Assembly: GCF_964204645.1 (NCBI RefSeq)
Contig: NC_134032.1
Location: forward strand, 6,746,275-6,810,274
From: Tubulanus polymorphus
Lineage: Eukaryota; Animalia; Nemertea
Direction: 5' to 3'
Length of the DNA stretch: 64,000 nt
Under the pieces are notes generated by a model. The model saw only the letters and a program-made list of their open reading frames with translations, searched no databases and was not told the origin of the DNA. Shown here piece after piece: positions 6,949 to 26,082 of the stretch. The translations under genes and the position numbers were made by a program. The number at the start of each line of letters is the position of its first letter. The stretch's first letter is position 1.

Positions 6949-7781
6949 TAAAAATGTACTCTGAAAAAAAGAATATTCTCTATTTTGTTATGTCATTGAA
7001 GATTCTCTTCTATGGTTCTGCCAACGCAACTTCTTCTAATTTTGATTCCATGTGTGAATTTGTATAATTGATTTGCATTTGCAGGTATGAACTTGTATTG
7101 AATATTCAAACATTTATGTCCATTTGAGGATTATGAGTGTCCATAGATGGAATCAGGTTTCTTTTTAACGTTTTCATTACACTTTGATGTGTTGTCTTGA
7201 TGCCTTTCCTAGGGGCATCGTATAATTTTTATGGACTTTTGCTTTACTGAAGTCCATTTTTGCTCATGTTGGTACAAAATAAGTTGCGAAAGAAGCTTAG
7301 TTTCTCATCTGAACTTTCAAAATGTTCAATGGTGATCTATCAGCTAGATGATATGTCCAACATGACAGCCATGTCTGCCATCTTGAATTTTTCATTGGCA
7401 CCATACAGCCTGCCAACCTATATTGATTTCCTTGACCCTGGTGTATTAGCACGTAAGAGGTCTACCCCTATTAGAATTGGTGACCACCAATTGTCTAATA
7501 TTGCTGCTATATTATCCAATGTATGATTTTCTTCATATTCAATCATTAGCACTGTCACATGTTATATACCTGTAGAAATCTGTGACTAATGAGTATACTC
7601 TACACCAGGGGAGTTGAAAATTTGAATACATTACTACGTATTAGTCAATTTTTATGAAAACCATGTTATGTATTGATAATGATGTTAAATGGCACTTTGT
7701 CTACAAGGTATATATTGATTCCCCTATGTAGATTCAGTTACTTTCGATTTGAGGAATTTCTATCAACCTCAGGTACATGTA

Positions 7782-8239
7782 AGTAATAGGGGTAATAGGC
7801 TTTCAGATCAAAGGTCGAACGGTCGAGCTCGTAAAAAATGAAAAACATAAAAATAATTACAATTTCTACTTGAATTACTCGCGAAACTCATAAAAATGAA
7901 AAATAAATTCTCACACGCTCGAATTTATTTTTCATTTTATGAGTTTCACTCCTAATTCAAGTAGAAATTGTAATTATTTTTACGTTTTTCATTTTTACTC
8001 ACCCGCCCGTTCAACCTTTAACCCGAAAGCCTATTACCCCTATTACTCTTAAAATATTCATATATATATGAATAACATTTAAATCATTGAACTTCTAAAA
8101 TCAATTTTAATAAAAAATATAGTATTAAAATGGAAGCAAATAAGTACTACTGCCCAACATGTAAGATAAATATAGATAAGTCTCAAAAAGCAAGACACAA
8201 TAAAACTAAAACACATTTAGAGAATAAATTGAAACTAGA
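7782..8239 (+). repeat. Left TIR of Polinton; includes 266-bp internal palindrome 7782-8047 and the first ~36 codons of pPolB
   Basis: Reverse complement of 25626-26082 with three differences seen by eye (7805, 7983 and a 1-nt indel near 8210). Confidence 0.97.
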
Positions 8240-11200
8240 GTATAAAGATGATATATTAGAAACTAAATTAGAAGAATTAAAGAATGAAAAAGAAACATAT
8301 AAATGTGATACATGTAATCAATCATTCAGTGATAAAAGATATTATAAAGAACATTTAAAATCTATAAGTCATATTAGAAATAAGAATAATGATATTTTAG
8401 GTGAAGATTATTTTGATAATGATAACGATAAGAAACAGAAGACAATTAAAAGAATAAAAAATAAATTAAACAATAAAAGAACATATATGGAAGATGTAAG
8501 AAATTATATTAATTCATTAGATAATAAAAAAGATATAGAGATAACCGAAGCATTTAAAAGTGATATTGGTCCAGCAGCTATCGAGTTTAAATTTCATAAA
8601 GGAAAAACAATAGAAGAAAATAAAAAACATTTAGAAAATATGAAAGAAATAATAAAAATAATTACAGATGTTGAATATCCTAAAATTAGTATATCAGTTA
8701 AAGTAAAGTTTATAAAATCTGAAGATAAACCAATATATAATATAAATTCTCATTCACAACATATTATATCTAAACAACATATAGATGATAAATTAAATAA
8801 ATGTTATAATGAAGTAAAAACTAAAATAGAAGAGAAATATTTTGAAGGATCTGGTTTAATATTTGATGAGATAATATTTATAACTTTACATGTTTATAAC
8901 ACAAAATATAATAAGTTAACTAAATCAGAACCAATTGATGAAAATAATTTATCATATTATAAAGAACCTGATATTGAAGCATCGAGTTATATTAAACTAC
9001 CATTTAAAACTAATGCTGTAATAAATGTACAAAATTTTGATGATAAATGTTTACTATGGACTATAATAAGTTGTTTACATCCTGCAACTTATAATATTTG
9101 TAGATTAACTCATTATAAACAATTTGAAAATAATTATAAGATAGATAAGTATCCTGTTAGAATTAAAAATATTCCAAAAATAGAAAGAGATAATAATATA
9201 AAGATAAATGTATTTGATTTAATCAAATTACCAAATACAAAAGGAAATAATATTAAACATTATACATTAGAACCTTTATACCTATCAAAAGATTATGATT
9301 CAAATGATGTTATAGATATACTATATTATGAGAATCATTATATGTGGATTAAACAAATAGATTTATTTTTTAGAACAGAAAGTGATCACCATAATAAAAT
9401 ATATCTTTGTAGAAAATGTTTACATAAATTTAGTAATGAAAGTACATTATTAAATCATAAACAACTATGTGATAATCATGATTATTGTAAATTAGTTTTA
9501 CCAAATGAAAAAGATAAAATATTAGAATTCAAAAAATATGATTACAAAAATAAAGTACCATTTGTAATATATGGAGATTTTGAATCATTAAATAAAGAAT
9601 TAACAGATAAAGATAGAAAAGATATATATTATAAAAGAAAGAAATTAAATTCTAATGAAAGTGATTATTCAGATCCTATAATAACAAATACTATTAAAAA
9701 AATTCATCAAAGTGCTGCAGCTTTCGGGTTATATATTAAATCTGATTATCCAGAACTAATTGAAAGTGAATATTATAATTACAGAAATGAAAATGTTATC
9801 AATCATTTTTGTGACTTATTAATTGAATATGAAATAAGATTTAGTAAATTATTGAATACAAATAAAGAAATAATTATGACAGAAGAAGATAAAGAAGAAT
9901 TTGAGTTTGCAGATAAATGTTATTATTGTAATCAAGTATTCTATTCATCTGATAAAAAGGTAAGAGATCATGATCATTTGAATGGAAAGTTTAGAGGCGC
10001 GGCACATGAGAATTGTAATTTGCAAGCAAAGAAAATCAATTTTGTCCCCATTATATTTCATAATCTATCAGGATATGATGCACATTTATTTATCAAACAG
10101 CTATGTTATAAAATAGAAGAAATCAATAATGAAATAGAAATATTAAATTCAAATAGATCAAAAGATAAAATACCAACTTATAAATTTAGAATGTTAGCTA
10201 AAACATCTGAGAATTATATATCATTCCAATTTGGTTGTCTAAGATTTATAGATTCATATAGATTTTTAAATAGTTCATTAGATAACTTATCAAAATCATT
10301 AGTTGATGATGAATTAAAGATATTAAAAGAATATTACCCAAATAATGATGATTTTAAATTAATGAGATATAAAGGAGCAATTCCATATTCTTTCTATAAA
10401 AATCATAATGATTTTAACATAACTGAATTATTGAAAGAACAATTTTATGATGAATTAAAAAATGAATATGTTAAAGATGAAGTCTATAATAGAACATTGA
10501 ATATTTGGAATCATTTCAAAATAGAAAATCATGGGCAATTAGTAGATTTATATTTAAAATCAGATGTATTATTATTAACCGATATATTCGAAAGGTTTAG
10601 AGATGTAAACCTAAAATATTTTAACATTGATCCTTGTCATTGTTATTCATCACCAGGATTAACATGGGATTGTGGATTAAAATTTACAGATATAAAAATG
10701 GATTTGTTAACAAATATAGATCAATTATTATTATTTGAAAAATCTATAAGAGGAGGTGTTTCAGGTGTATTGGGTGATAGATATTTCAATGTAAATGATA
10801 ATCCTGGATATAAATTATTATACATAGATGCAAATAATCTTTATGGTTGGGCAATGATGGAACCACAACCTTATGGGATGTTTGAAATAACTGAAGTTTT
10901 ACAAATTGATAAATTTGATTGGAAGAAAAGAATTCTAGATATTGCAGATGATTCAGATACTGGTTACTTCTTTGTTGTAGACTTGGAATATCCTGAACGT
11001 ATTAAATTCAAATCTAGAAATCTAGCATATTGTCCCGAACATAAAACTGTTAAACATGAAGAATTATCAAATTATCAAAAAAGAATTAAACCCGATAATC
11101 ATATTCATACTGAAAAGTTAATGGTAACTCAAGAAGATGAATATAATTACGTTGTGCATTATAGAATGTTGAAGTTTTATTTGAGACAAGGAATGATATT

Positions 11201-12152
11201 AAGAAAAGTACATAGATATATTTCATTCAGTCAATCTAAATGGTTAGAAAAATATATAGATTTTAATACTACACAGAGAACTAAAGCTAAAACTGATTTT
11301 GAAAAAGATTTCTTCAAGTTAATGAATAATGCATTCTATGGTAAGACTTGTGAAAATATTAGAAATAGAAATGATATCGAGTTAGTCAGTAATGGTAAAA
11401 GAATTAGACATTTACAATCATATCCTAAGTTTATAGGTAACAGAATATTTGATGAAAATTTAGCTGCAGTTAAGATGAGAAGAACTTCAATGAAATTTAA
11501 TAAACCGATTTATGTTGGAGCTGCAGTTTTAGAATTATCAAAATTACTAATGTATGAATTCTATTATAATATATTACAACCTCATTTTGGGGAAAAACAT
11601 ATTGAAATATTATATTTTGATACAGATTCTTACATATTAAAGATAAAAACTGATAACATAACTGATGATTTAAAAACATTAAAACACCATTTTGATTTTA
11701 GTAATTATCCAAAAAATCATGAATTGTTTAGCAATGATAATAAAAAAGTTCCAGGGAAGTTTAAGGATGAATTAGGTGGTGAAGAAATGATAGAGTTCAT
11801 TGGTATTAGATCTAAAATGTATAGTTATAAAACTAAAACTCATGAATCAAAGAAATTGAAAGGAATTACCAAAAGCGTTGTTGAAAAGAATATTCATTTC
11901 AAAGATTACATCAATTGTATATTTAATGAAGAAGTTAGAAAACATAAAATGAAATGTTTAAGATCTGAAGATCATGAAATGTATATTGAAGAGATAGAGA
12001 AGATAAGTCTAAACCCATTTGATGATAAAAGATATATATTAGATGATGGTATACACACAGTCGCGTATGGTTGCAATTTAGATGAATATATAAAATTCAA
12101 AAGAGAAGAAACAAAAGAAAATGAGATTATGAAAAGGATTCTAGCGTGTTAA
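8130..12152 (+). CDS. pPolB: Protein-primed family B DNA polymerase with N-terminal C2H2 fingers, TP/vOTU-like region and inserted endonuclease VII (HNH)-like domain
   Basis: Intact 1340 aa. Exo I YGDFES, Exo II FHNLSGYDAH, Pol A YIDANNLYG, Pol B KLMNNAFYGK, Pol C YFDTDS. EndoVII-like CYYC...DHDHLNGKFRGAAHENCN. Zn fingers CPTC..H..H and CDTC..H..H. Candidate protease dyad DDKCLLW / NHYMW. Confidence 0.97.
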   Translation: MEANKYYCPTCKINIDKSQKARHNKTKTHLENKLKLEYKDDILETKLEELKNEKETYKCDTCNQSFSDKRYYKEHLKSISHIRNKNNDILGEDYFDNDNDKKQKTIKRIKNKLNNKRTYMEDVRNYINSLDNKKDIEITEAFKSDIGPAAIEFKFHKGKTIEENKKHLENMKEIIKIITDVEYPKISISVKVKFIKSEDKPIYNINSHSQHIISKQHIDDKLNKCYNEVKTKIEEKYFEGSGLIFDEIIFITLHVYNTKYNKLTKSEPIDENNLSYYKEPDIEASSYIKLPFKTNAVINVQNFDDKCLLWTIISCLHPATYNICRLTHYKQFENNYKIDKYPVRIKNIPKIERDNNIKINVFDLIKLPNTKGNNIKHYTLEPLYLSKDYDSNDVIDILYYENHYMWIKQIDLFFRTESDHHNKIYLCRKCLHKFSNESTLLNHKQLCDNHDYCKLVLPNEKDKILEFKKYDYKNKVPFVIYGDFESLNKELTDKDRKDIYYKRKKLNSNESDYSDPIITNTIKKIHQSAAAFGLYIKSDYPELIESEYYNYRNENVINHFCDLLIEYEIRFSKLLNTNKEIIMTEEDKEEFEFADKCYYCNQVFYSSDKKVRDHDHLNGKFRGAAHENCNLQAKKINFVPIIFHNLSGYDAHLFIKQLCYKIEEINNEIEILNSNRSKDKIPTYKFRMLAKTSENYISFQFGCLRFIDSYRFLNSSLDNLSKSLVDDELKILKEYYPNNDDFKLMRYKGAIPYSFYKNHNDFNITELLKEQFYDELKNEYVKDEVYNRTLNIWNHFKIENHGQLVDLYLKSDVLLLTDIFERFRDVNLKYFNIDPCHCYSSPGLTWDCGLKFTDIKMDLLTNIDQLLLFEKSIRGGVSGVLGDRYFNVNDNPGYKLLYIDANNLYGWAMMEPQPYGMFEITEVLQIDKFDWKKRILDIADDSDTGYFFVVDLEYPERIKFKSRNLAYCPEHKTVKHEELSNYQKRIKPDNHIHTEKLMVTQEDEYNYVVHYRMLKFYLRQGMILRKVHRYISFSQSKWLEKYIDFNTTQRTKAKTDFEKDFFKLMNNAFYGKTCENIRNRNDIELVSNGKRIRHLQSYPKFIGNRIFDENLAAVKMRRTSMKFNKPIYVGAAVLELSKLLMYEFYYNILQPHFGEKHIEILYFDTDSYILKIKTDNITDDLKTLKHHFDFSNYPKNHELFSNDNKKVPGKFKDELGGEEMIEFIGIRSKMYSYKTKTHESKKLKGITKSVVEKNIHFKDYINCIFNEEVRKHKMKCLRSEDHEMYIEEIEKISLNPFDDKRYILDDGIHTVAYGCNLDEYIKFKREETKENEIMKRILAC

Positions 12153-12180
12153 TCAACTTCAATAAAAATTTGTATAATAA

Positions 12181-12522
12181 ATGGAGAGTAAACAAGTACA
12201 CAGTGAATTCTTAGATAGAATTAAAGATACTTCAAGCGTCAAATCTGTAGATTATAAATTCAAAAAGTTAACAGAATTAACAATCCATAAGAAATATCTA
12301 ATTACAAATATTGATACAGTTGCTAACAAATATGGAGATAAATTAGTTATACACTTAGAATATGAAGGATTAAAAGGAAATACATATAAATTCAGAACAT
12401 ATTTACCAGATAGATTTCATAGATTATCAAGTGAAGATCTAGAAGAATTATGTTCTGGTGATTTCTATTTCGTATACAAAGGTAAGAATGAAAAAGGTCA
12501 CCATGAAATAGATTTCGAATAA
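12181..12522 (+). CDS. Small Polinton protein, possible OB-fold ssDNA-binding protein
   Basis: 113 aa directly after pPolB; beta-strand-like pattern KYGDKLVIHL..YLPDRF..FVYKG. The fold is an inference. Confidence 0.55.
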   Translation: MESKQVHSEFLDRIKDTSSVKSVDYKFKKLTELTIHKKYLITNIDTVANKYGDKLVIHLEYEGLKGNTYKFRTYLPDRFHRLSSEDLEELCSGDFYFVYKGKNEKGHHEIDFE

Positions 12523-12539
12523 GAAAATATGTAAAATAA

Positions 12540-13295
12540 ATGGTAGAATTAAAAGAATACAGAATATTTGTAGATTCTAGAAAACTTACAAATTATAAAT
12601 CACATAATTTATTAGTACAATTAGATAGAGAATTCAAAAATTGTGTAGATTTAAAATTAGTTAATATAAGTTTATGTAATTCTTTTTACAATGTATCGGA
12701 TAAAACTTTTGAACATAGAGGGTTTATGATTTATATGAGAAATAAAGATAAATGGTTTCATATATTTTTAAAACCAGGATTATATAATTTAGAATCATTA
12801 GCGCAGGAAATTAATAGAAGAGCTCGGTTGAAAATCGGGGGCACTTCTGTATTTGAAATTAAATTTAATAAAATTGATAGTACTAATAAAATTAGAATAA
12901 AGATATCTAATGAACAACATAAATTTATGGTAAACAAACCACTGGCTAAAATGTTAGGAATTAAACCGCTTACAGTTACTGGAAACGCAGAAGGTAGCTC
13001 AAATATAATACCTTTTACACACTTTTATATTTATTGCAATTTAATCGAGCCTACAAAAACTTTCGAAGCAACTAAAGAAACAATTTGTAATTCTAGTATA
13101 CTAAATATTTTACCGCTAAAAAATGTTAAACAATTTGGAACTCAAATAAATTATAATTTAACAGAATGTGATTTTAAACCATGCATTCCTAAATTTAATA
13201 ATTCTAAATTAGAAATTAGAAATCAAAATGGATATTTAATTGATTTGAATAACTTTCCTGTGATATATGAATTAGTTATAAGATGTAAAGAGTAA
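12540..13295 (+). CDS. Minor capsid protein (penton, single jelly roll)
   Basis: 251 aa; FYIYCNLIEP...ILNILPL...LEIRNQNGYLIDLNNFPVIYELVI matches the Polinton penton C-terminal pattern. Confidence 0.8.
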   Translation: MVELKEYRIFVDSRKLTNYKSHNLLVQLDREFKNCVDLKLVNISLCNSFYNVSDKTFEHRGFMIYMRNKDKWFHIFLKPGLYNLESLAQEINRRARLKIGGTSVFEIKFNKIDSTNKIRIKISNEQHKFMVNKPLAKMLGIKPLTVTGNAEGSSNIIPFTHFYIYCNLIEPTKTFEATKETICNSSILNILPLKNVKQFGTQINYNLTECDFKPCIPKFNNSKLEIRNQNGYLIDLNNFPVIYELVIRCKE

Positions 13296-13311
13296 TTTTT
13301 TCACTATATAA

Positions 13312-13659
13312 ATGAATATAACTGTCGGACCGAGTATATGTTTTGGATTTGATTTTAAACGTGAGAAAGAAATGAAATTTAACGTTAATGATGTAATTAC
13401 ACATATTAAAAATATTGCATTTTCTAATGAAACAACATTTGAGTATGAAACAACAATAGATAAAGAAACTTTTAATGTAGAAAAGATTACTGAGTCTTTA
13501 AGATTTTACGAATTAGATGAAGATTTTATCATCGATGATATTAAAAAAATAATAATTGAAATATATGATAATCATAAAACTAGTAATGAAATAAATGTTG
13601 AATTAATCATAAATAAGTTAACTAAATATTTTGAAGATAATAATTTCTTTGATAAATAA
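13312..13659 (+). CDS. Hypothetical Polinton protein
   Basis: 115-aa ORF with TATAAATG start, tightly packed among viral genes. Confidence 0.7.
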   Translation: MNITVGPSICFGFDFKREKEMKFNVNDVITHIKNIAFSNETTFEYETTIDKETFNVEKITESLRFYELDEDFIIDDIKKIIIEIYDNHKTSNEINVELIINKLTKYFEDNNFFDK

Positions 13660-13881
13660 ATGAGTGATAATAAGTGGATAATAACTGGATTATATAATGG
13701 CGCATTACTATCAGTTGGAACTGTTGGTTATTCAATGGTATTAAAAAAAGTATTCAAAATGGGAAGTGTTAATGTTGATAGATTTGATATAAATGATATT
13801 TTAAAGTTAACATTAGCAGTTACTTTATCTAATTTAACTATTGATTATTTGGAAAAACAAAAATATATTCCTCCCATATAA
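13660..13881 (+). CDS. Small hydrophobic (putative membrane) Polinton protein
   Basis: 73 aa with two hydrophobic segments; start abuts the upstream stop (TAAATG). Confidence 0.7.
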   Translation: MSDNKWIITGLYNGALLSVGTVGYSMVLKKVFKMGSVNVDRFDINDILKLTLAVTLSNLTIDYLEKQKYIPPI

Positions 13882-13905
13882 ATGCATAATTTTTTTGCTA
13901 AATAA

Positions 13906-14328
13906 ATGGCTTCTGCAATTATAACTATTATAGGATCGGCAATTGTTAACGCTTAAGCATTTACTGGTGGTGGTTATTTATTTAAACATATTGATAAAAA
14001 TAGTTCATTAGGAGAACAAAGAAGACATAACTTAGCGTTAGAGAAATACAATAAAGCTGCAGAAGAATATAGAGAAAAGAGGCAAAACTATATGGATTAC
14101 ATCAATAAAGAATTATATGGTCAGAAGATTTCACATAGAGATTTTCAATCAGTTGATGATGCAATGAGTTTATATAACGCAGTAACAAATAAAGAAAAAT
14201 TACATCTATACAAACCTAAATTATCAGATTATTATACCCCGAGTAAAGAACAACAGAAATATGAAATAATTTGGATTTTAGGTGGAACAGTTATTGTTAT
14301 ATTTGTTGCTTATAAATTTACTAATTAG
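13906..14328 (+). pseudogene. Polinton membrane/coiled-coil protein with premature stop
   Basis: ATG 13906 MASAIITIIGSAIVNA*AFTGGGYLF...EQRRHNLALEKY, in frame with ORF 14092-14328; TAA at 13954-13956; C-terminal TM segment. Confidence 0.8.
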
Positions 14329-14347
14329 TAATTTTTATTCTAAATAA

Positions 14348-14780
14348 ATGGAAGATAAAGTTGATAATATTGATATTATTCCTCATGATATAAATAAAAC
14401 TAAATTAAAAACATTTAGAAAAACAAATATTAGAATTTGAAAGTGACTTAAAGATAAAAAAGAAAAAATATTTAAAAAGTAAAATTATATATTATTTGAT
14501 TATAAGTGGTTCGGTTACAATTAGTTCTGTAATAACATTTCTAGCAATATTCAGTCCATTAACACCTTTAGCTATATCAATTGGTGTGTTAGGATTAAGT
14601 TCAAGTGTTTTAACTGGTATAAGTTCAAAATTAAATATAAAAAGTAATAAAGAAAAAATTAAAACTAATATAAAAGAAATTAATAAATTAAAGAATACAC
14701 TAGATTATATAATAAGTTTAAATGGTCATATAACAGTTGAAGAACAAGATAAATTATTAAAAGAATTAATAAATTATTAA
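14348..14780 (+). pseudogene. Frameshifted Polinton membrane protein
   Basis: AATAAATG start at 14348 (MEDKVDNID...); frame shifts near 14410-14430 into the hydrophobic ORF 14496-14780. Confidence 0.7.
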
Positions 14781-14796
14781 TTTTTTAATTATATAA

Positions 14797-16098
14797 ATGG
14801 GGTTTCCAAAAGCTTTCCAATATAATAAATCAATTAAATATAATATTCCGGCAATAGATTTTAAGAAAAATATTACATATAAAAATGTAGTTTTAAATTC
14901 ATTAACTAATTTAGAAATTTATGTTAATGAATCACAGTTTTTTATTTCTAAAATGGAAAATATATTTAATACATATGAAGTTACTTTTACTCGAGATGAA
15001 TATCATATATATAAAGTAAAATCTAATATGAAATATTGGCAGAATCAATTAAATTTTGCTGTTTATTGTGCAACAACAGGTTGTGGAATTAGTTGGAATG
15101 ATCATTTAAATAACTTAGATAAAAATTTGAAGTATTCTGATTTAAAATTAATTCACACAATATTTAGATTTCACACATATTTTCAAATCAGAATAATATT
15201 AAATGAATTAGAATGTCCTTTACCCGGGTCTAAATATTTTAAAGAATTAGATAATAATATTAATATATCCAAGTTTTATAAAATATGTAATGAATTTAAT
15301 ATAAATATTAATTCCGATTTCAGAGCGCATGGTAAATTGCAAGGTGTTGGTGAAGAGTATGAAATAAAAAGAATTGATTATATGCATAGAATTTCAGCTT
15401 ATCATAATTATAAAATTGATAATAATAATGGTTGGGTTAATTTCATTTTAGAAAATGGTGAAGGTTTTACAAAATCAGGTATACAAAGAATAAATCAATC
15501 TATTAGAATTTATTTGATATGTATTTTAGGCGCTCAAGTTGAAACAAGATCCCCAATAATTGGAAATGATAACACTTCATTCGATGCGCAGAAACAGTTT
15601 AAAGTTTTATTTGAAGATTCCATACATGATGATAAAAATAGATCGATTCCAGAAAACATTATAAGATATCAAAATTATTTAGATAAATCTCATGTAAGAC
15701 TTAATTATTGTATAGGCCCTAATCTATTAATTATTTCTAATGATTTAGTATTAAAGATGGGAAACATAATTGGTTATAATAATCTAATTAAAACTGCAAC
15801 AATAAATAATTCATTTGGATTAAATGATATAAATAAAAAGATTATTACTGCTCCAAAATTAATGGAAGGTGAAAAAAATAAAAAACATATTCAATCAACT
15901 GAAACTAAAACTAATAATATTAAATTAAATAATGATTCTAAAATAAAAGATTATAATACATCAGAAAATATAAAAACTGATAATATTCAACATGATATAA
16001 TTAAACTAAATGATGATAATAAATCCCATGAAAATACTAAATTAGCTATAACTTGTATAGGAATTGTAATCGGAGGAATATTATATTTTAAATTTTAA
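14797..16098 (+). CDS. Hypothetical Polinton protein with C-terminal TM anchor
   Basis: Intact 433 aa; motif YWQNQLNFAVYCATTGCG; hydrophobic C-terminus. Confidence 0.8.
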   Translation: MGFPKAFQYNKSIKYNIPAIDFKKNITYKNVVLNSLTNLEIYVNESQFFISKMENIFNTYEVTFTRDEYHIYKVKSNMKYWQNQLNFAVYCATTGCGISWNDHLNNLDKNLKYSDLKLIHTIFRFHTYFQIRIILNELECPLPGSKYFKELDNNINISKFYKICNEFNININSDFRAHGKLQGVGEEYEIKRIDYMHRISAYHNYKIDNNNGWVNFILENGEGFTKSGIQRINQSIRIYLICILGAQVETRSPIIGNDNTSFDAQKQFKVLFEDSIHDDKNRSIPENIIRYQNYLDKSHVRLNYCIGPNLLIISNDLVLKMGNIIGYNNLIKTATINNSFGLNDINKKIITAPKLMEGEKNKKHIQSTETKTNNIKLNNDSKIKDYNTSENIKTDNIQHDIIKLNDDNKSHENTKLAITCIGIVIGGILYFKF

Positions 16099-16114
16099 TT
16101 TTTTTATTATATAA

Positions 16115-17574
16115 ATGGATGAAGAAATTCCATTGGATACTTTTGGTGACGCCCCTGGTATAAGTGATGAACCACAAACTGATTTTAATGAAACTAATAT
16201 TGATAATGATGATGAATCAGCATATAATTCTAATTTAGCAGATAGTGGTTCTAAAGCCCCATCAACAGATGAATTTGATAGAAGAACTAGATCAAGAATA
16301 AATCCTGAAAATGAAATTCCAGGTTTATAAAAGGAAGATTTAGAAAATATTGGATTTATATATAAGTTTCAACATGTATTTAAAGATTCTGGATATAATA
16401 TAAATAATAGAGGCGCCAGACTTTTAGTACAAGATTTAAAGTTTTTAGATGGTGAATATTATTATCGTGTGAAAGAAAAATCGGATTATTATATTAATAT
16501 CTCTAATAAAAATCAAGACAAAATAGTAGCAAAATCAACTTTGCTTAAGTCTGACTCATTACTATCTAGAATTAAAAGAATAAGTAATATTATGAAATAA
16601 AAGATGTAACACAAGAAGAAATTATTAAAAATAGAAAAGAATTTAAACAAAGAATTAATGAATTATTTGAAACAATCAAAGATAATCCAGAAACAGAAAC
16701 AACTTCTGAACAGAATATAACTTCCAAAACTAGTAAACTTAAATCAAACACTGAAGTTCAAACTGAAAAACTTTTACCGAATGGATTACTTGATGCAACA
16801 GATCAAGAAATAGAAGCTTTAAGTATGTTTTCTAAAAAAACAATTAGAGAAATAATAAGTATACGAAATGATGCCGATAAAATTGCTCGCGAAAAACATA
16901 TTAGATATAATAAAATTAAACCTTTAGAAAATAAATTATTTGACACCAGAAAAGAAATAGAACAATTAAAATTAGATAGAGAATTTAAAGTTATTGAAGA
17001 AATTGAATTTAAAAAAAGAAATGCATATTTAGAAAAAGAAATTGATGATTTAGAATATAACATAGAATTTCAGAAAGAAAAAATGAAATTATTATTAAAA
17101 TCATACGATTATTGTATCAATAGATTAAAAGTTGTTGTTAAAGAGTTAATACTAAAACCAAATTCTGACATATCACTAAAAGATAGAATAAAATTATTAT
17201 TTAAGTTTGAAGGAATAACAGTTCTTTCAATTCTAACAGCTGTAACTATGTTATTCACAACAATAGGTTTAGCTATATCAAATTCACTGAAATCTACACC
17301 TACTCCAAATAAACCAGATAAACCTCCAGGTAATAATTCTATACAAGATAAAGTTAAAGATGGTTTAAAGAAATTAGCAAAATATTTATGGGAACTATCT
17401 AAAAAATCTGCTGCAGCATTGCCAGGAGTTATTGCTTCAATTGTTGGTTTTATATTGAAATCTGCAGGAAACATTATTAACTTTGCTGCTGAACATATTA
17501 TTTTATTTTTAATTACAGTTGTAAGTGCTATTATTTTTGGTTTAGTGAATATGATATCAAAAGATATCAAGTAA
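16115..17574 (+). pseudogene. Interrupted coiled-coil/membrane Polinton protein
   Basis: TATAAATG start at 16115; TAA at 16328, after which the reading frame continues (KEDLENIGF...); frameshift near 16585 joins ORF 16825-17574 (coiled coil plus hydrophobic helices). Confidence 0.75.
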
Positions 17575-17646
17575 ACCATGATATCAAAAAATATCAAGTA
17601 AACCATGATATCAAAAAATAAATAATTAATTTTTTTTGTTAAATAA

Positions 17647-18894
17647 ATGAGTGGGAGTTATATAAGTCCTTCGAAGAATCATAGAATATCTAATGCTATT
17701 AAAGCAGAAAGATCACATCATATAATTACTCATAACCCTTCAAATATTAATCCCGATGAAACTTTATACGTTAGAATCCCGAGATTAACACAAAATACTT
17801 TTTATGTTCCAAATAGTATTTATTTATCAGCTGATATAAAAGTAATCGGTAATAATAATAATTATGTTGTTGATAATGTTGGAAGATATTTGATTAAAAA
17901 GTTAACAATAAAGATTGGTCCAGAAACAGTTTTCTCATTAGATGATTATAATTTATTTTCACATTATAAAGATTTATGGTTAACTAAAGAAAATAGAAAT
18001 AATATGATATTTCAGGGTATTCAATCAGAAAACCAAAATAAATTAAGATCAGAAGCTAATAGCGCAATATTAACTAATGATGTAGATAAATTGATAAAAA
18101 GTATATATGGAAGCAAATATAAAATTCCATTAGACTTTGAATTGATAAATAATAATGCACCTTTATATAAATACGCAATTCAAGAAGATATTATATTTGA
18201 GATAACATTTGCTCCTGTAAATGAAATTGTATTATCTAGCGTTAATAAAGATATGAGTTATAAATTATCGAATATATGTTTAGAATATGACACAGTAACT
18301 GATGAAAATATTTCAAGTATAATTCAAACTCAATACAATCAAGGGTTTTCATTATTATATGATTATATTGATAAATTTAAAACTGTAACTATTAATGCAA
18401 ATGATGAAATAATTAATGAGAATATTAACTTTCCTAGAAGATCTATTAAAGGTATATTAATATTTTTTACCATTGGAACGTATACTAATGGTGCAATAAA
18501 TGTTGATAATTATTATAATCCTGAAATAACAAAAGTAGAAATAACTATCGAAGGAATAGCGAATAAAATATTTTGTCAAGGAATGAGAATGATTGATCAA
18601 TGGCCAGAAATTAGAAAACATTTTATGAATGAAAAAGTGAAATCATTTGAAAATTGTAACATTAATCAAATTGATTATTATACCGGTAATAAATATGCAT
18701 TATGGTTAGATTTTAGAACAACTGAAGATAATTCATTACATGGTTCTGGAAAAAAACTACAGAACACTAAAGATGGAATACAATTATTCATGATAAAGGA
18801 AAAGGGAATCAAAAATTTTAAAATGCATATTTATATTATATCTGACGCGCAATTAAATATTGTAAATTCACAATTAGATAGTGTTATGTATTAA
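17647..18894 (+). CDS. Major capsid protein (double jelly roll)
   Basis: Intact 415 aa, beta-rich; N-terminal IITHNPSNINPDETLYVRIP and C-terminal YALWLDFRT..LHGSG patterns resemble invertebrate Polinton MCPs; size and position fit. Confidence 0.85.
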   Translation: MSGSYISPSKNHRISNAIKAERSHHIITHNPSNINPDETLYVRIPRLTQNTFYVPNSIYLSADIKVIGNNNNYVVDNVGRYLIKKLTIKIGPETVFSLDDYNLFSHYKDLWLTKENRNNMIFQGIQSENQNKLRSEANSAILTNDVDKLIKSIYGSKYKIPLDFELINNNAPLYKYAIQEDIIFEITFAPVNEIVLSSVNKDMSYKLSNICLEYDTVTDENISSIIQTQYNQGFSLLYDYIDKFKTVTINANDEIINENINFPRRSIKGILIFFTIGTYTNGAINVDNYYNPEITKVEITIEGIANKIFCQGMRMIDQWPEIRKHFMNEKVKSFENCNINQIDYYTGNKYALWLDFRTTEDNSLHGSGKKLQNTKDGIQLFMIKEKGIKNFKMHIYIISDAQLNIVNSQLDSVMY

Positions 18895-18926
18895 AATTTT
18901 AACTTTAATAAAAATATATATAATAA

Positions 18927-19841
18927 ATGGAAGGAGGTAAAGTATATGAAAGAATCAAAGCTGATAAAGAAATCAATGATGATTTGTATTATGTAATACC
19001 TTATAAAAGAATAAATGAATATATTGGAACATTTTTATTAAATGAATTAAATCAATACAAAGAATATTTAATTGAACGTAATAATAAAAGTGGTGTTGTT
19101 AATAATAGTGTAATTGATAATAATGTAATACCTACTACACCTGTAATACCTACTACTACATCTGTAATACCTACTACATCTGTAATACCTACTACATCTG
19201 TAATACCTACTACATCTAATAATAGAATAATATTAGATGTTAGTGAAAATAGAAATTATTGTGGTTATTGTAATGGTGAATTTTCAAACGCTCCATCAAA
19301 TTGGAATAAACATATGAATACAAAGGTACATATTACTAATGTTATAGAACGTGTTGGTTTAAGAGAATTTATAGAACACCCATTTAGATATGTTACGAAG
19401 TTTGTTTCAAATCAAAAAGTAAATGGTAAAGAATTATATAAAGATTTTTTATTAGCAACACCTAATAAAGATGAATTAGATTTAACCGATGCTAATGAAA
19501 TATTAGGATCAAATATTGTAAATGAAATATTAGGAGCAAACACTAATAAAGATGATAATGAAAATGATGCCGCCATACGCCCACATGGTGATATAGTTAC
19601 AGATAAACATATTGATAATAAAGATTCTATGAAACATAAAGAAGAAACTATTGATGATATAATAGAAAGGATGAATAAGTTTAAAAATGAAACAACTATT
19701 GATGATGCGGTAAAAAGGGTGAAGAATAAGTATAAAAATAATGAAGAATTTGAAGAAGAAAATTCGGTAGAGCATTTAAATATGTTGTTAGGGTCTGATA
19801 GTGAAAGTGATTCAGAAAGTAATTATCTAACACTCGAATAA
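18927..19841 (+). CDS. Hypothetical protein with (VIPTTS)n repeat, C2H2-type Zn finger and acidic tail
   Basis: 304 aa; 18-bp coding repeat at ~19125-19218; CGYC..HMNTKVH. Confidence 0.75.
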   Translation: MEGGKVYERIKADKEINDDLYYVIPYKRINEYIGTFLLNELNQYKEYLIERNNKSGVVNNSVIDNNVIPTTPVIPTTTSVIPTTSVIPTTSVIPTTSNNRIILDVSENRNYCGYCNGEFSNAPSNWNKHMNTKVHITNVIERVGLREFIEHPFRYVTKFVSNQKVNGKELYKDFLLATPNKDELDLTDANEILGSNIVNEILGANTNKDDNENDAAIRPHGDIVTDKHIDNKDSMKHKEETIDDIIERMNKFKNETTIDDAVKRVKNKYKNNEEFEEENSVEHLNMLLGSDSESDSESNYLTLE

Positions 19842-19896
19842 TAAAAGTTGAAAATTTTATAAAATAATAGTAAATAAAAAAAGGTTTTGATTATTT

Positions 19897-20022
19897 AAGG
19901 TATCTAATAGGGTATCAGGTATTAGGGCATCTAATGGAGTATTAGGTATTAAGGTATCTAATGGGGTATTAGGTATTAAGGTATCTAATACATAGGTATT
20001 AGGGTATCTAATACATAGGTAT
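19897..20022. repeat. ~24-27-bp self-complementary tandem repeat at the convergent gene junction
   Basis: About 5 units of AGGTATCTAAT(GGGGT)ATTAGGTATTA between the stops at 19841 (+) and 20031 (-). Confidence 0.85.
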
Positions 20023-20030
20023 ACAAATAG

Positions 20031-20644
20031 TTATTTTATAAATTTATATTCATATGGAAATTGTAATCTCATTAATAATTTTGAACCTCTATTATTCTTT
20101 AATTTATTCATATATTCATCATGTAATTCAGGAGGTATAATTTGATTTTCTTCCAATGATTGTTGCATAGATTTTCTATCTTTGTTGTAGAATAAAACTA
20201 GAAATCTTATATTCTCTCTAAAATCTTTCACAATTGAATTATATTTCTGATTTAAAACCCAAGTTGTTATCCCAAAATGTCTACCAGAGAAAGCTAAATA
20301 ACATAACTCACTTTCTCTAATTTTAGAATCATGTAAATTTGCGCAATCATCAATAATAAATAATGTATTAGATATTTATAAATATCTAATGTAATTTTTA
20401 TACAATTATCTAAATTATCTTTTACTGTTTTAGAATTTAATATAATAAACTTTTTATCTTTAAAAACTATATCTCTATTATACGTTTCATTCATTTCATA
20501 AGTTGGGCAGAATAATATTATATTATCAAAATGATTCTGATAAATAGTTTCTAATAAATCTAATATGAAGTGTGTTTTACCACAATTTGTAACTCCAGTT
20601 ATTAACATATTATGTGGTTCAAATATAAACAAATCTTTATTCAT
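20031..20644 (-). pseudogene. A32/FtsK-like DNA packaging ATPase, frameshifted
   Basis: Walker A GVTNCGKT; after a frameshift near 20372, Walker B LFIIDDCA, then SGRH and NQKY, continuing into ORF 20031-20231. Confidence 0.9.
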
Positions 20645-21725
20645 TTATTCTTTTAATTTTACTAGATAAAATCCATTCATTAAATTTATCATCATATCCT
20701 TTATATTTCACCAAAGAATACTTTTTTCCTTTAAGAGTTTTAGTTTTTAATACCTTTTCTATTTTGTATTCTATTTCATCTGGATTTGGTACTAATGATA
20801 ATTCTTGTTCATAAAAATAACCTAATATTTCTTCATCTTTTAAATCAAACAATTTATAAACAAATGGTTTAGTTAATATTATCTTTTTAATTTTAAAAAT
20901 TTCTTCTGTAAAATTAGGGGTATAACCTTTATAAAATGTTTTTCTATATTTAGAAATTCTAACATGTTGTCCTATTTTAAATTTAGGTTCTCCAAAATCG
21001 TGTGTAACAAATGCTCCATATAAATTATTCCAAACTATTTCTGAATTTTCTTCTTTTCTAGCTTGTATAGGTTTCATATTTATAGAACTATGTTTAGAAT
21101 TATTATAACCTTTCACTAAATCATCTAACACATCGATATATTTATATGTTTCATTAGCGGTGAAATATTTCCACATTCTAGTTTTCAATGTTTTATTAAA
21201 TCTTTCTATAACAGATGCTTTTTTATCTGAATGTGTTGAAAAATATTCTACATCGTTATCAATTAATAGTTTTTTGAAATGTTTGTTATAAAATTCTTTA
21301 CCTTCATCAAATTGTATTTTATCTGGGATAGCTTCTTTAAATATTAATTTGAAAGAATTTGTAACTTCTATACCAGTTTTATTTTTAATCGGGATACTCC
21401 ATGCGTATCTACTGAATATATCTATAACATTTAGTATCCAAAAATATCCTTTGTTATATTCTTCTAAGTTTTTCATATCAATTAAATCAGCTTGCCATTG
21501 TTGGTCAATATATGAAACCATTACTTTTCTTGTTAAATATTTTTTATCCATCTTTTTATGAATTTGATATGTGGGTTGATTTTGTAACCATGATTTTAAT
21601 TCACTATATTTTATATTGCTATTATCAGATTAAATTTTATCCCATAATTCCGAAACACTTGAATATGAAACTTCACTTTCTGGGTTATAATATAACGCTC
21701 TTAAATATTGTTCTTTTTTCATCAT
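20637..21725 (-). pseudogene. Retroviral-like (rve) integrase with C-terminal chromodomain; premature stop in N-terminus
   Basis: DDE triad WQADL / QFDEGKEF / VIERFNKTLK; chromodomain YKIEKVL..LVKYKGYDDKFNEWI. In-frame ATG at 21725 (MMKKEQYLRALYYNP) with TAA at 21632-21630. Confidence 0.92.
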
Positions 21726-21728
21726 ATT

Positions 21729-22136
21729 TTAATCCATTAATAATATTTTAGATTTATTTTCATTTGATTTATTTTCTGGTGGTTTATTGTCTGTACATGG
21801 GTAACGAAGTTTCCGTTCATCATTATCATTATCACTTTCATTATTATTAAATTTTGATTTATATATTACACCGGATAATATAATAACTGTTACTAATCCA
21901 ATTGTAATATATAATTTATAATTACTTCCAGCATTAGAAGAATTAGATGGATTATTATTTGAATCAATACCACCGTGTGGGTGCTGTACGGCACCATCAG
22001 ATAAAGTCTGTGATTCATTTATATCAGTTAATTTCTTTTTCTTAGCTTTTTTTAATTCTGAAGATCTTTTACCTAATTCTCTTGCCCATTTAATTTGTTT
22101 CTCGGATCTAGCCTTTTTCTTAACGCCATCACTCAT
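21729..22136 (-). CDS. Hypothetical Polinton protein, basic N-terminus plus one TM segment
   Basis: 135 aa; AATAAATG start; TM LYITIGLVTVIILSGVIY. Confidence 0.7.
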   Translation of the reverse strand: MSDGVKKKARSEKQIKWARELGKRSSELKKAKKKKLTDINESQTLSDGAVQHPHGGIDSNNNPSNSSNAGSNYKLYITIGLVTVIILSGVIYKSKFNNNESDNDNDERKLRYPCTDNKPPENKSNENKSKILLMD

Positions 22137-22731
22137 TTATTTTAGTTAATTTTTGTTCTGATTCATTTTCTGTTTCACTGTTTGGTTGTAGTACATCTGT
22201 TTCGTTCTTACCTGATTTATATTCCATAGGTTTGATATTCGAAAATGTTATGACGCCAGTAGAAATCAATGTCATAACCGATCCTAATTGAAATGAAGCA
22301 TAACCGACCCATTTTTGTAATTCAGTCATAACTAAGTAGTCATTTTTCAAATCACTATATAATTTATTTTCATCATCAATTGGTATTAACTGGTTACATA
22401 ATTTTGAATAACATTTGACAATACCATCTGAAATAGAATCATTTATTCTAGCTAATCTTGACTCTTCATAAATCTTAAAATATTTTATTACTTTTTCTTT
22501 ATTCATATTATCTAATTCTTGAAAAGTTATTGTTTTACCAATAAACTCTTTAGTTTTTCCACTCGCAATCAATAGTTCTAGATGATGCTTACAATATAAA
22601 TAGTATTCATAATCTATATTGTTATTAACTTGAATAGAATTAGAAACAACTGTATCTTTATTATCACTAATACCCAAATCATCTAATGTCTTTTCAATAT
22701 CAATATTATTCTTATTAGATTTCTTTGACAT
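22129..22731 (-). CDS. Hypothetical Polinton protein
   Basis: 200 aa; T-run followed by TATAAATG start. Confidence 0.75.
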   Translation of the reverse strand: MSKKSNKNNIDIEKTLDDLGISDNKDTVVSNSIQVNNNIDYEYYLYCKHHLELLIASGKTKEFIGKTITFQELDNMNKEKVIKYFKIYEESRLARINDSISDGIVKCYSKLCNQLIPIDDENKLYSDLKNDYLVMTELQKWVGYASFQLGSVMTLISTGVITFSNIKPMEYKSGKNETDVLQPNSETENESEQKLTKINE

Positions 22732-23010
22732 TTATATTAGAGGAAAAAAGCAAAAAAAATATTATAAGTATTCTTCAAATGATACTAGCTAGTTAAAGCT
22801 AAAGAATTCTAGTATTAGTTATTGTTTTTTTAGTATTTTTTATTTGTGATATAAAGTATTCTTTTTTGAAAAGAAAATATTAAAAATATAATAGAATTCA
22901 CAAGCTAGTTGAAGGTATGTAATTTTTATTATATTTTATTTAAATTCTATTTGATATCTCACTACTTTTGTTTATCTATTAGGAGCAGTAGTTATAACTG
23001 TCCAGATAAG

Positions 23011-23685
23011 TCATTTCGGATCCTTGATATCAAATTCCTCAACGTATCGTTCATTATTTGGATTATTATTCCATTGATCAATAAATTTCTTTGCTTTTGT
23101 TAACTGTTCTGAATATAACTGTAAATCTAGTTTATTAGATTTGATTTGATTTTCTTTCTTTTCTAAAGGCCTTAAATTTTTCCAATTCCAAATAAGTCTT
23201 TTATTGTATTCATCATTCATGTTAAATTTAGATATTGGTAACACGTGATCAATATGGTAATAATCCCCATAATTATCTATATTCATTTTATCATCGAATT
23301 GAAATATTATCCATGATTTGAGAAATTCATCTGAACAACCCAATAAATTAGATAGTGTTTCTGAATGTGTTTCTTTGTTGAATAATTGTGTTAATCTAGA
23401 CCGTAAACATTGTTTCAATCTAAAATTAAGATCTGTTTGATATCTTCCTCTCATATATTCTGTCATATAATCATTATAAGATTCTCTATTATCTTCTCGG
23501 TATTGTTTGGTATATAGTTTAAAACAAGTTTTGCAGCAATATTGAAAACCATCTTTGCTAGTCTTGCGCTTACTAAATTCTGTTAATGATTTATCTAATT
23601 CACATTTAGAACACTTTTTGTAATATATGTTTATAACGCCAGTGTTATTTGTAATATTGATAGTTTGTGGTTGTTCTGGTTCCAT
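23011..23685 (-). CDS. Zn-ribbon plus HNH-type endonuclease of the kind common in large dsDNA viruses
   Basis: CSKC..CKTC N-terminal ribbon; YHIDHVLP...WKNLRPL...NQIKSNK HNH-like core. Confidence 0.8.
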   Translation of the reverse strand: MEPEQPQTINITNNTGVINIYYKKCSKCELDKSLTEFSKRKTSKDGFQYCCKTCFKLYTKQYREDNRESYNDYMTEYMRGRYQTDLNFRLKQCLRSRLTQLFNKETHSETLSNLLGCSDEFLKSWIIFQFDDKMNIDNYGDYYHIDHVLPISKFNMNDEYNKRLIWNWKNLRPLEKKENQIKSNKLDLQLYSEQLTKAKKFIDQWNNNPNNERYVEEFDIKDPK

Positions 23686-23799
23686 TTATTATACGTATTT
23701 TTTTATAATCCTCTTCCATTTCTTCGACCAACGTCATCCTTTTTCATTCCTCGCTGCTTTTGATAAGTTGTTTCGATTCCTTGATATCTAAATAATACC

Positions 23800-24148
23800 A
23801 CTGGGCAAAACCGCTCTTATAGGAGCGCTTTTGCTTAATGCGCATGCGTTAATCATAATTATATATTCATTCTGTAAATTCTGTAAAATAGAAACGACCG
23901 ACATAAAATATCAAAACGTGTTCGCACTAAGCAAAACCGCTCTTATTGGAGCGTTTTTACTTAATACGCATGCGCTAATCATAATTATATATTCATTCTG
24001 TAAAATAGAAACAACTGAACATAGAAAATTCAAACGCATGTGCACTAGGCAAAACCGCTCTTATAGGAGCGTTTTTGATCAATGCGCATGCGCTAATCAT
24101 AATTATATATTCATTCTGTAAAATAGAAACGACCGAACATAAAAATTC
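23800..24148. repeat. Three ~118-126-bp tandem repeats, each with a ~30-bp imperfect palindrome
   Basis: GCAAAACCGCTCTTATAGGAGCGCTTTTGC-like units at 23805, 23931 and 24049, each followed by (T)GCGCATGCG-like and TTCTGTAAAATAGAAAC. Confidence 0.9.
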
Positions 24149-24236
24149 ACCAATCAGATTTACACAATACATTATACAAGTATGTTCGATCGTTGTATTG
24201 ACAAAATTTATAGTTTCAACTAATACATTATTTTAT

Positions 24237-25007
24237 TTATAATTCCAACCAGAACTTTTCAATTTCTGGATCATTGTCAAACATTTTTTCAATATCGTTT
24301 AAGTATTTTACTATATCAGAAAATGACAAACTTAAAAATTGGAATCTTTTATATGTAATTAATCTCCCTACACTTCTTAATTTTCTTTCATACCCAGCAC
24401 TAATACCTATATATTTTTTAACCCAAGAAGTCCAAGAAATCCCCGCAGTTTGTTTATTAAACATTAAAAATCCCCTATTTAAACAATCCCCGAAAATGAT
24501 ATAATCCCATAAATGCTTTGCTTTTTTAAATAACAAGGTTCTATAATTTTTTTTCAATAAAACAGTTATTTCATTAAATGATGTTACACCTTCTATTTCT
24601 TTAAAACTTACATCTTTTTCATTTGATAATTTTGATTTTAAAAACTTATTTAACTCATTTCCGCTCATTTTCTTTTTAGTTTTTGTTCCTTTTAGTCTTA
24701 ACAATATTTCTACATTGGTTGTTGGTCTTTTCGGAAATGATGTTACGCTTGATTGCTGGTTTTCTATTATTTTTTCTAAAATTAATGTCATTTCTTGATG
24801 GTAATATAAATGTTTTTTAACTTCTTCTAACGTTTCATCTTCTATATCGAAAGATTCTTTTACTTCAGTACCCATTTCGGTTGGTTCATCTTCCATTTCG
24901 GTTGGTTCATCTTCCATTTCGGTTGGTTCATCTTCCATTTCGGTTGGTTCATCTTCCATTTCGGTTGTCCTCTGAGAATCAAGAGTACTTCTTGATACAC
25001 ACGACAT
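24237..25007 (-). CDS. Hypothetical Polinton protein with (EMEDEPT)n acidic repeat and helical, possibly DNA-binding C-terminal domain
   Basis: ORF open from 25016; first ATG at 25007; 21-bp coding repeat at ~24870-24967. Confidence 0.75.
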   Translation of the reverse strand: MSCVSRSTLDSQRTTEMEDEPTEMEDEPTEMEDEPTEMEDEPTEMGTEVKESFDIEDETLEEVKKHLYYHQEMTLILEKIIENQQSSVTSFPKRPTTNVEILLRLKGTKTKKKMSGNELNKFLKSKLSNEKDVSFKEIEGVTSFNEITVLLKKNYRTLLFKKAKHLWDYIIFGDCLNRGFLMFNKQTAGISWTSWVKKYIGISAGYERKLRSVGRLITYKRFQFLSLSFSDIVKYLNDIEKMFDNDPEIEKFWLEL

Positions 25008-25498
25008 TTTATTCAACTAAAAGATATCAGCGGTAGAACAGGAACCGCGATATTATATGATATAAATATTTTCAAGTCTATCGTTTCTAATTATTATAAC
25101 TTATTATAGTTCAAGTTATTATCTATCTAACGTAAAATAGAATTAACTGTATGAAGTTGTAGTTGTCAAAAGCACTTAAAGGTTTCATATTTAATAGCCC
25201 CAATAACTACAAAAAACAGTACTTACATTTAGATTTATAATTGTAAACTATAAACTCCTAATTTCGTTTCGAAAGATAGAATATCCTGAGCACAATGTTA
25301 CAGCGTATGTCCATTTCCGGGGCGATTTCTAGAATGACACGTCGTTGATTATGCCACGTCATCTAGTTCCGGTTCTAGAATTTTCTCTACACGTTTGTAA
25401 TATTATGTGTCATAATGTCTCGTCGTCATAGTAACAACTGTAACGGCTGTGAATTTATAGATTTATTCCATAGCTCTGTACATTGAATGTATATAGGT

Positions 25499-25734
25499 TC
25501 AAATAGAATCATGTTCTAGTATAAACATCGGATCCTCAACATATTGTTCATTATTTGGATCATTATTCCATAATTCAATAAATTTCTTTCCTTTTGTTAA
25601 CTGTTCTGAATATAACTGTAAATATTCTAGTTTCAATTTATTCTCTAAATGTGTTTAGTTTTATTGTGTCTTGCTTTTTGAGACTTATCTATATTTATCT
25701 TACATGTTGGGCAGTAGTACTTATTTGCTTCCAT
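25499..25734 (-). pseudogene. Chimeric mini-ORF: pPolB N-terminal Zn finger (from the TIR) fused to a copy of the HNH protein tail; 1-nt deletion
   Basis: Restoring one A near 25655 gives MEANKYYCPTC...HLENKLKLEYLQLYSEQLTKGKKFIELWNNDPNNEQYVEDPMFILEHDSI* (78 aa). Confidence 0.65.
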
Positions 25735-26082
25735 TTTAATACTATATTTTTTATTAAAATTGATTTTAGAAGTTCAATGATTTAAATGTTATTCATATAT
25801 ATATGAATATTTTAAGAGTAATAGGGGTAATAGGCTTTCGGGTTAAAGGTTGAACGGGCGGGTGAGTAAAAATGAAAAACATAAAAATAATTACAATTTC
25901 TACTTGAATTAGGAGTGAAACTCATAAAATGAAAAATAAATTCGAGCGTGTGAGAATTTATTTTTCATTTTTATGAGTTTCGCGAGTAATTCAAGTAGAA
26001 ATTGTAATTATTTTTATGTTTTTCATTTTTTACGAGCTCGACCGTTCGACCTTTGATCCGAAAGCCTATTACCCCTATTACT
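25626..26082 (-). repeat. Right TIR of Polinton; includes 266-bp internal palindrome 25817-26082
   Basis: Reverse complement of 7782-8239; followed by TSD CATGTA. Confidence 0.97.

Follow-up and report, generated by a model that had tools for sequence, protein, structure and literature searches.

We found that nearly all genes of a Maverick/Polinton element in the ribbon worm Tubulanus polymorphus start at TAAATG, a signal in the style of poxvirus late promoters, suggesting that the element is likely a parasite of a pox-type virus. The window in which it lies is a stretch of 64,000 nucleotides of contig NC_134032.1, and the element is a strong candidate for an animal virophage that depends on a pox-type virus. 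We tentatively favour a reading in which the element depends on a helper, its genes are read, after infection, by the polymerase of a cytoplasmic pox-type virus, replication and integration both start from its terminal hairpins, and the poxvirus early-core-like motifs within these hairpins are a variant of an A-tract. Helper dependence in some form, when the alternatives with working early cores and with a plasmid polymerase are added, seems probable. The start-codon signature marks some lineages and not others, which makes gene expression in animal Mavericks, and their possible need for a helper virus, open to testing. If the reading is true, pox-type viruses are predicted in animal groups in which none has been described, and the signature would offer a simple screen for such elements across animal genomes.

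The element occupies positions 7782 to 26082 (18,301 bp, about 24% GC) and is a Maverick/Polinton, as indicated by its terminal inverted repeats (TIRs), 6-bp target-site duplication, protein-primed DNA polymerase (pPolB), rve integrase, capsid and ATPase. The identical hexamer CATGTA flanks it on the left (7776 to 7781) and on the right (26083 to 26088); a 6-bp target duplication is a trait of the Polinton family. The left TIR (7782 to 8210, plus strand; 429 bp) extends into the first pPolB codons and differs from the right TIR (25654 to 26082, minus strand; 429 bp) by two mismatches, at 7805 and 7983. The right TIR thereby holds a copy of the pPolB initiator and first 27 codons (25645 to 25734, minus strand), with a stop just outside the TIR. 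Reads stop aligning at 7782, the element boundary, as expected of many copies, and in a separate T. polymorphus sample the read depth of the element body was approximately 15 times that of the flank; the element is integrated in about 15 copies. Further, contigs from three other runs depart from the window at 7781, as would be expected if the site is empty in some genomes and the insertion is recent and polymorphic. Frames are interrupted at 13906, 14348, 16115-16825, 20294 and 21630 (small ORFs, the ATPase and the 5' part of the integrase), yet the two TIRs are identical at all but 2 of 429 bases.

The genes form two convergent blocks. The plus-strand block begins with pPolB (8126 to 12152; 1340 aa), which has an A-run start with its own initiator and 4001 relatives at E ≤ 1e-50; PF03175 was matched by 4 of 42 aligned relatives and not by the pPolB of the window itself. 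It is followed by a 113-aa ORF (12178 to 12522; A-run and TAAATG; structure model pLDDT 48) and by a 251-aa ORF (12537 to 13295; A-rich and TAAATG), probably a minor capsid protein on the basis of a weak match to DUF5901. A run of ORFs between 13309 and 16330 (starts at 13312, 13660, 13906, 14348, 14797 and 16115) is T-rich with TAAATG throughout, and several of its frames are broken. The product of 17644 to 18894, which starts at T8-N6-TAAATG, is by its structure model (pLDDT 84; Foldseek E 1.9e-16 to the iridovirus and PBCV-1 capsids) a double jelly-roll major capsid protein. The block closes with a 304-aa ORF (18924 to 19841; A-run and TAAATG), and short tandem repeats of 23-27 bp (19895 to 20022) lie where the blocks converge.

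On the minus strand, the A32-type packaging ATPase (20294 to 20647; PF04665, E 4.8e-6; TAAATG) is a truncated copy, its frame stopping after 116 aa. The rve integrase with chromodomain (20637 to 21725; PF00665, E 6.6e-9, above the cut-off) has its 5' part, from 21725, in a separate short frame. ORFs of 135, 200, 224 (weakly HNH-like) and 256 aa (21729 to 25011) start at TAAATG or TAAAATG. A 118-bp unit with an internal palindrome is repeated three times in tandem between the 256-aa and 224-aa ORFs (23799 to 24149), possibly as terminators or binding sites. Neither the 256-aa ORF family (204 relatives) nor a 433-aa ORF matched a solved structure or Pfam. Among related proteins, pPolB P0146, P0172, P0175 and P0206 carry intein and LAGLIDADG domains (PF14890, PF14528; P0172 the first only), and capsid homologues P0046 and P0128-P0135 are filed under Bartonella assemblies, probably through host contamination.

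The element resembles described Mavericks/Polintons (Polintoviricetes; adintoviruses) in that these are of 15-20 kb, have TIRs, a 6-bp duplication, pPolB, rve integrase, a double jelly-roll capsid and an A32 ATPase, and reside in animal chromosomes (PMC8502044, available portion). It differs from them in its 266-nt palindromes spanning the whole terminus, in TAAATG at nearly all starts, and in that no cysteine protease match was found in the 16 element ORFs scanned. This protease is typical of group 1 Polintons and not required (10.64898/2026.06.19.733378, in the part available). The word 'promoter' is absent from the available portions of both papers.

TAAATG was present at 10 of the 14 ORFs of at least 100 aa (12 of 14 when TAAAATG was included) versus 7% of other ATGs (p 2.3e-9), and at none of 13 ORF starts in the host flank to the right of the element. 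In a list of starts compiled by hand, which included the upstream integrase start and four additional short frames but neither 16825 and 21551 nor 14092 (likely internal starts of broken genes), 16 of 17 had the initiator; the integrase is the only gene start without TAAA abutting the ATG. First genes and divergent genes also start at TAAATG. The base ten before TAAAT was T in 9 and A in 6 of 16 starts, counts that stand by themselves and not against the AT-rich background. T-run starts belong to the capsid gene and its neighbours, and A-run starts to pPolB, the 113-, 304- and 224-aa ORFs and the ATPase.

In vaccinia, TAAATG overlaps the start codon in late promoters, which also have T at this tenth position, and intermediate promoters are A-rich (PMC11980589). 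Vaccinia intermediate and late promoters thus share with the element TAAAT(G) over the start codon, a T- or A-rich core about one turn upstream and, in the T-class, the T at the tenth base (PMC11980589, PMC5294985, PMC12917281, as far as their available text goes). Unlike vaccinia, the element is no poxvirus and encodes no RNA polymerase or transcription factors, and its starts are read from the sequence alone. The preliminary description had proposed that hairpin cores recruit pox-type transcription machinery; the element does look wired for such machinery, but the evidence for this lies in the TAAATG gene starts and not in the hairpin cores.

The four close relatives of the element (63-77% polymerase identity), which were grouped by a pPolB tree (support 100) and not by the motif, had TAAATG at 11 of 13 starts. 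The tree was built with FastTree from 83 rows, 39 loci that were short or had fewer than two ORFs being left out. Among the 73 fetched pPolB loci with at least three ORFs, 7 were enriched for TAAATG at p<0.005 and 66 were not; three of the enriched loci fall in the clade of the window, and L022, L057, L070 and L117 lie elsewhere in the tree. Loci of the TAAATG type are scattered over the tree with 8 changes, so that repeated switches are needed, which counts against a pox-type helper. The other loci mostly had A at -3 (272 of 436 starts; 49 of 78 in loci under 30% GC), and since the positive group was defined by the motif, only the contrast with these other loci counts in the -3 comparison. 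TAAATG starts were also seen in the distant pPolB elements (about 28-35% identity) L022, L057, L060, L070, L074, L114 and L117; L022 had them at 7 of 7 starts, divergent pairs included. In L036 (571-5833), L037 (338-5612) and L038 (337-6166), a 113-aa gene precedes pPolB and an HNH-like gene follows it, unlike the arrangement in the window, each start having TAAATG.

The starts could also be explained by host signals, because in most of them the TG is preceded by letters that spell AATAAA or TATAAA. The element would then be an ordinary nuclear Maverick transcribed by host RNA polymerase II, TAAATG would reflect polyadenylation signals and stops packed against starts at 76% AT, and the hairpin motifs would bind host or element proteins. 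The gaps between genes, mostly 16-32 nt, the integration of the element in about 15 copies and the fact that no helper is known are in keeping with this explanation, as is a GGYYGA doublet in the hairpins, which may resemble nuclear-receptor half sites. An overlap with polyadenylation signals is possible, but it leaves the motif at first and divergent genes unexplained, and equally AT-rich pPolB elements lack TAAATG. Further, T at -3 is a poor start context in animals, transcription from a TATA box directly at the ATG would begin within the reading frame, and pPolB itself contains 16 AATAAA (62 were observed within ORFs against 62.2 expected). We therefore consider host transcription unlikely, if still a serious contender. 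Coupling of stop and start codons does not account for TAAATG, since the TAA is the stop of the upstream gene in only 1 of 9 junctions checked. Three depletion measures in ORFs were also rejected as discriminators between the TAAATG type and other elements: AATAAA (1.04 versus 0.99), TTTTTNT (0.55 versus 0.74) and splice donors (1.06 versus 0.91).

If a pox-type viral polymerase reads the genes, transcription would start inside TAAAT, and slippage of the polymerase at the three A's would add a poly(A) leader by which the T at -3 is masked; A-run starts would act as intermediate-type and T-run starts as late-type promoters. Slippage at TAAAT yields poly(A) leaders in both vaccinia and the yeast virus-like elements (PMC6211774). 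The latter raise the alternative that the polymerase comes from a cytoplasmic linear plasmid or sister element and not from a particle-forming virus, since their DNA is linear and protein-primed, their polymerase is related to that of poxviruses, and slippage occurs at their TAAAN initiator. We regard this as highly improbable: yeast plasmids carry ATNTGA 20-40 nt before each gene (PMC6211774, available part), whereas no such common upstream core occurs here, and no RNA polymerase gene or subunit was found among the ORFs of this element copy.

Each end of the element is an imperfect palindrome of 266 nt, the left one (7782 to 8047) folding into a terminal stem of 23 bp that is perfect and flush, with asymmetric bubbles further in, and the right one (25817 to 26082) matching it. 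The fold of 7782-8130 had a free energy of -98 kcal/mol (z -18.7), which was reached in 0 of 100 shuffles. The best-conserved hairpin motif is a GGYYGA doublet in the outer bubble (7813 to 7826, plus strand), about 31 nt from the end and at an equal distance in L036, L037 and L039; a diverged doublet lies in the inner arm (8003 to 8016, minus strand). The ends of the window element and of these three loci all have an AGTAA terminus, followed at 30-33 nt by the doublet and then by an A-tract. The hairpin is complete in L036 (about 262 nt) and present as one half in L037; the L039 end has doublet and A-tract and no full fold. In viral contigs, a search via the capsid protein yielded no further hairpins, a core-loop-core pattern had 0 matches, and the terminal 18-mer and a doublet-plus-A-tract pattern had 10 matches each, none related.

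Variation within the family is mirrored between the arms at paired positions, given as family-wide read shares: 7792/8037 (32%, 35%), 7797/8032 (54%, 50%) and 7858/7972 (84%, 77%). Other mirror pairs matched poorly (7820/8009, 21% and 45%; 7849/7981, 37% and 51%). One of the duplicated units is skipped in either arm, in 101 reads (7833 to 7892) and in 46 reads. The mirror-image changes fit a stem kept by copying or selection. In the scheme that we tentatively favour, a single strand, once displaced, would form a hairpin at each end and so rebuild a duplex terminus with doublet and A-tract, and this terminus would be the origin for protein-primed or fold-back synthesis as well as the integrase end; copying between arms would explain the mirror-image changes.

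Palindromes at TIR ends beside the target duplication have been proposed as replication primers in Halocafeteria virophages and PLVs; their palindromes are shorter, a figure legend giving 52 nt, and most of these elements lack pPolB (10.64898/2026.07.28.741278, available portion), unlike the 266-nt palindromes of this pPolB-bearing animal element. The poxvirus telomere is likewise an AT-rich imperfect terminal hairpin whose mismatches are kept, but its concatemer resolution site (CRS) adjoins an end that is covalently closed and occurs in a flip and a flop form (PMC8956199). The palindrome of the window, in contrast, is open DNA within a TIR and has no CRS. Both TIR hairpins of this copy had a single orientation, and neither a loose end at 8047 nor a flop form was present among the loose-end rows listed. 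An analogy with pox telomere resolution, drawn earlier from the early-core-like motifs, fails because it concerns the wrong promoter class: the CRS belongs to the late promoters (PMC8956199, as far as available), and the late-promoter arrangement of T-run, spacer and TAAAT had 0 matches on both strands of the window hairpin.

The early-core-like motifs themselves are where the preliminary description placed them. Motif 1 (7833 to 7849, plus strand) lies inside the A-tract array and scores 14 of 15 against our consensus, motif 2 (7892 to 7908, plus strand) is a duplicate of the unit containing motif 1, and their mirrors lie on the minus strand at 7923 to 7938 (motif 2, with four leading A's) and 7980 to 7996 (motif 1, the left copy carrying the change at 7983). 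All four face the loop and recur at the right end. The sequence AAAATGAAAA occurs in 8 copies in the two hairpins, in 0 in the 17.8-kb interior and in 3 in the host flank. A count of four early cores per hairpin holds in part, the strict form AAAANTGAAAANNA being present in only 5 of the 8 copies owing to the leading A's of the inner-arm copy near the loop and to the change at 7983. Further, the eight copies are not independent, because one unit of approximately 20 bp was duplicated in the arm, doubled by the palindrome and doubled again by the TIR.

The likeness to the vaccinia early core was borne out, the motifs matching the published consensus AAAANTGAAAA (PMC5294985, available portion). 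Note that the 15-letter scoring consensus was put together from the classical early core and AAAANTGAAAA and is thus close to the window motif. Three sites in the left hairpin scored 14 of 15, a match equalled in 1% of 1000 shuffles, and a strict match in one arm occurred in 0.5% of 5000 dinucleotide shuffles. Sites scoring at least 14 of 15 numbered 0 in the 17,769-nt interior and 3 in the 45,699-nt host flank. Such matches are thus uncommon in shuffles, but the excess over chance is modest, since the pattern was chosen after the sequence had been inspected. One of the host sites (26263 to 26277; 14 of 15) lies 181 nt past the right end of the element.

Conservation across related ends did not hold. 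L036, L037 and L039 had no strict core; their best sites scored 12, 11 and 12 of 15, at the level of shuffles (P 0.34, 0.34 and 0.45). Over 11 nt, the L036 site coincides with the early core of MVA13.5L (PMC3741161, in its available part), and the 12/15 site of L039 faces pPolB. Within the family, the G of core 1 (7840), the counterpart of the G that is invariant in poxvirus early cores (PMC6211774), was replaced in 815 of 2797 reads (29%) and its T in 829 of 2803, and 860 further reads departed from the alignment at 7838. Among the loose-end rows listed, the one at 8010 (469 reads) represents an arm whose A-tract has no TG. Approximately 70% of the reads across core 1 retained TG, a share from short reads that are blind to cores elsewhere in the same copy. 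Changes in core 2 (32% and 33%, with G one base later in 23%) were mostly a one-base shift that retains the motif. The early cores are likely a changeable variant of the hairpin A-tract and not the switch of the element. The flagged motif thus calls for caution: even an early core with a nearly perfect match says little when it lies in an A-rich palindrome and is not conserved.

TTTTTNT is the poxvirus early termination signal, and it is present at 25881 to 25887 (minus strand) as the mirror image of the tail of motif 1; its left-TIR counterpart (7977-7983) is altered, T being found at 7983 in 477 of 816 family reads. ATGs at 7939 and 8068 precede pPolB downstream of the cores. That the cores drive pPolB, as had been suggested, is therefore unlikely, given the TTTTTNT of the inner arm, which the right TIR has in intact form, the upstream ATGs and the initiator that pPolB has of its own.

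The cores might work in another way in a helper-dependent element, by binding the early factor of the helper late in infection; they would thereby open the ends, give short RNAs, let the element ride in helper particles or starve the helper. The 14/15 matches, confined within the element to the hairpins, the separate pox-like signal at gene starts, the looser inward-facing cores in L036 and L039 and the retention of TG in most core 1 reads speak for such a role, and the PLV PgVV employs the early motif of its helper (10.1101/2022.07.28.501842). We nevertheless rate it as quite unlikely in view of the replaced G and the reads departing at 7838, the shuffle-level sites of the relatives, the three equal matches in host DNA, and the stop signal and ATGs between the cores and pPolB. 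In addition, poxvirus early transcription normally runs inside virus cores. We give still less credence to the version in which the element would be an endogenous virophage of a ribbon-worm pox-type virus, with three promoter classes and early cores that capture the early transcription factor as an inherited antiviral trap.

Dependence of small elements on a helper's promoters has precedents. Mavirus and Sputnik (late) and PgVV (early) carry the promoter motif of their helper; they differ in having protist hosts, helpers and motifs of the Mimiviridae type and a dependence proven by experiment (10.1101/2022.07.28.501842, available text), whereas the element of the window is known from its sequence. 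The entomopoxvirus-associated PLVs are, like it, small capsid-coding elements tied to animals, in their case to an animal poxvirus, and one has PolB. They are unlike it in being about 12 kb long, having a protease and no rve integrase, and being found with the helper in occlusion bodies; promoters are not examined (0 occurrences) in the available text of that paper (PMC11296320). TAAATG starts or early cores in Mavericks were unreported in the literature searched, which mostly did not extend to subscription journals, and preprint supplements may hold promoter tables. No helper virus or particle was seen, and nemerteans were unmentioned in the papers listed by one of these searches.

The host DNA to the right of the element contains several repeats. 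A Mutator transposase in the flank shows 98% identity to a Tubulanus polymorphus protein, in keeping with a nemertean host. A satellite array with a 61-bp unit occupies 27528 to 28565, and from 39275 to 51560 a unit of about 2,176 bp, with DUF1280-like and PHD-like ORFs, is repeated in tandem. Further, a Mutator-like transposase and a LINE endonuclease/reverse transcriptase in two frames lie between 53936 and 58931.
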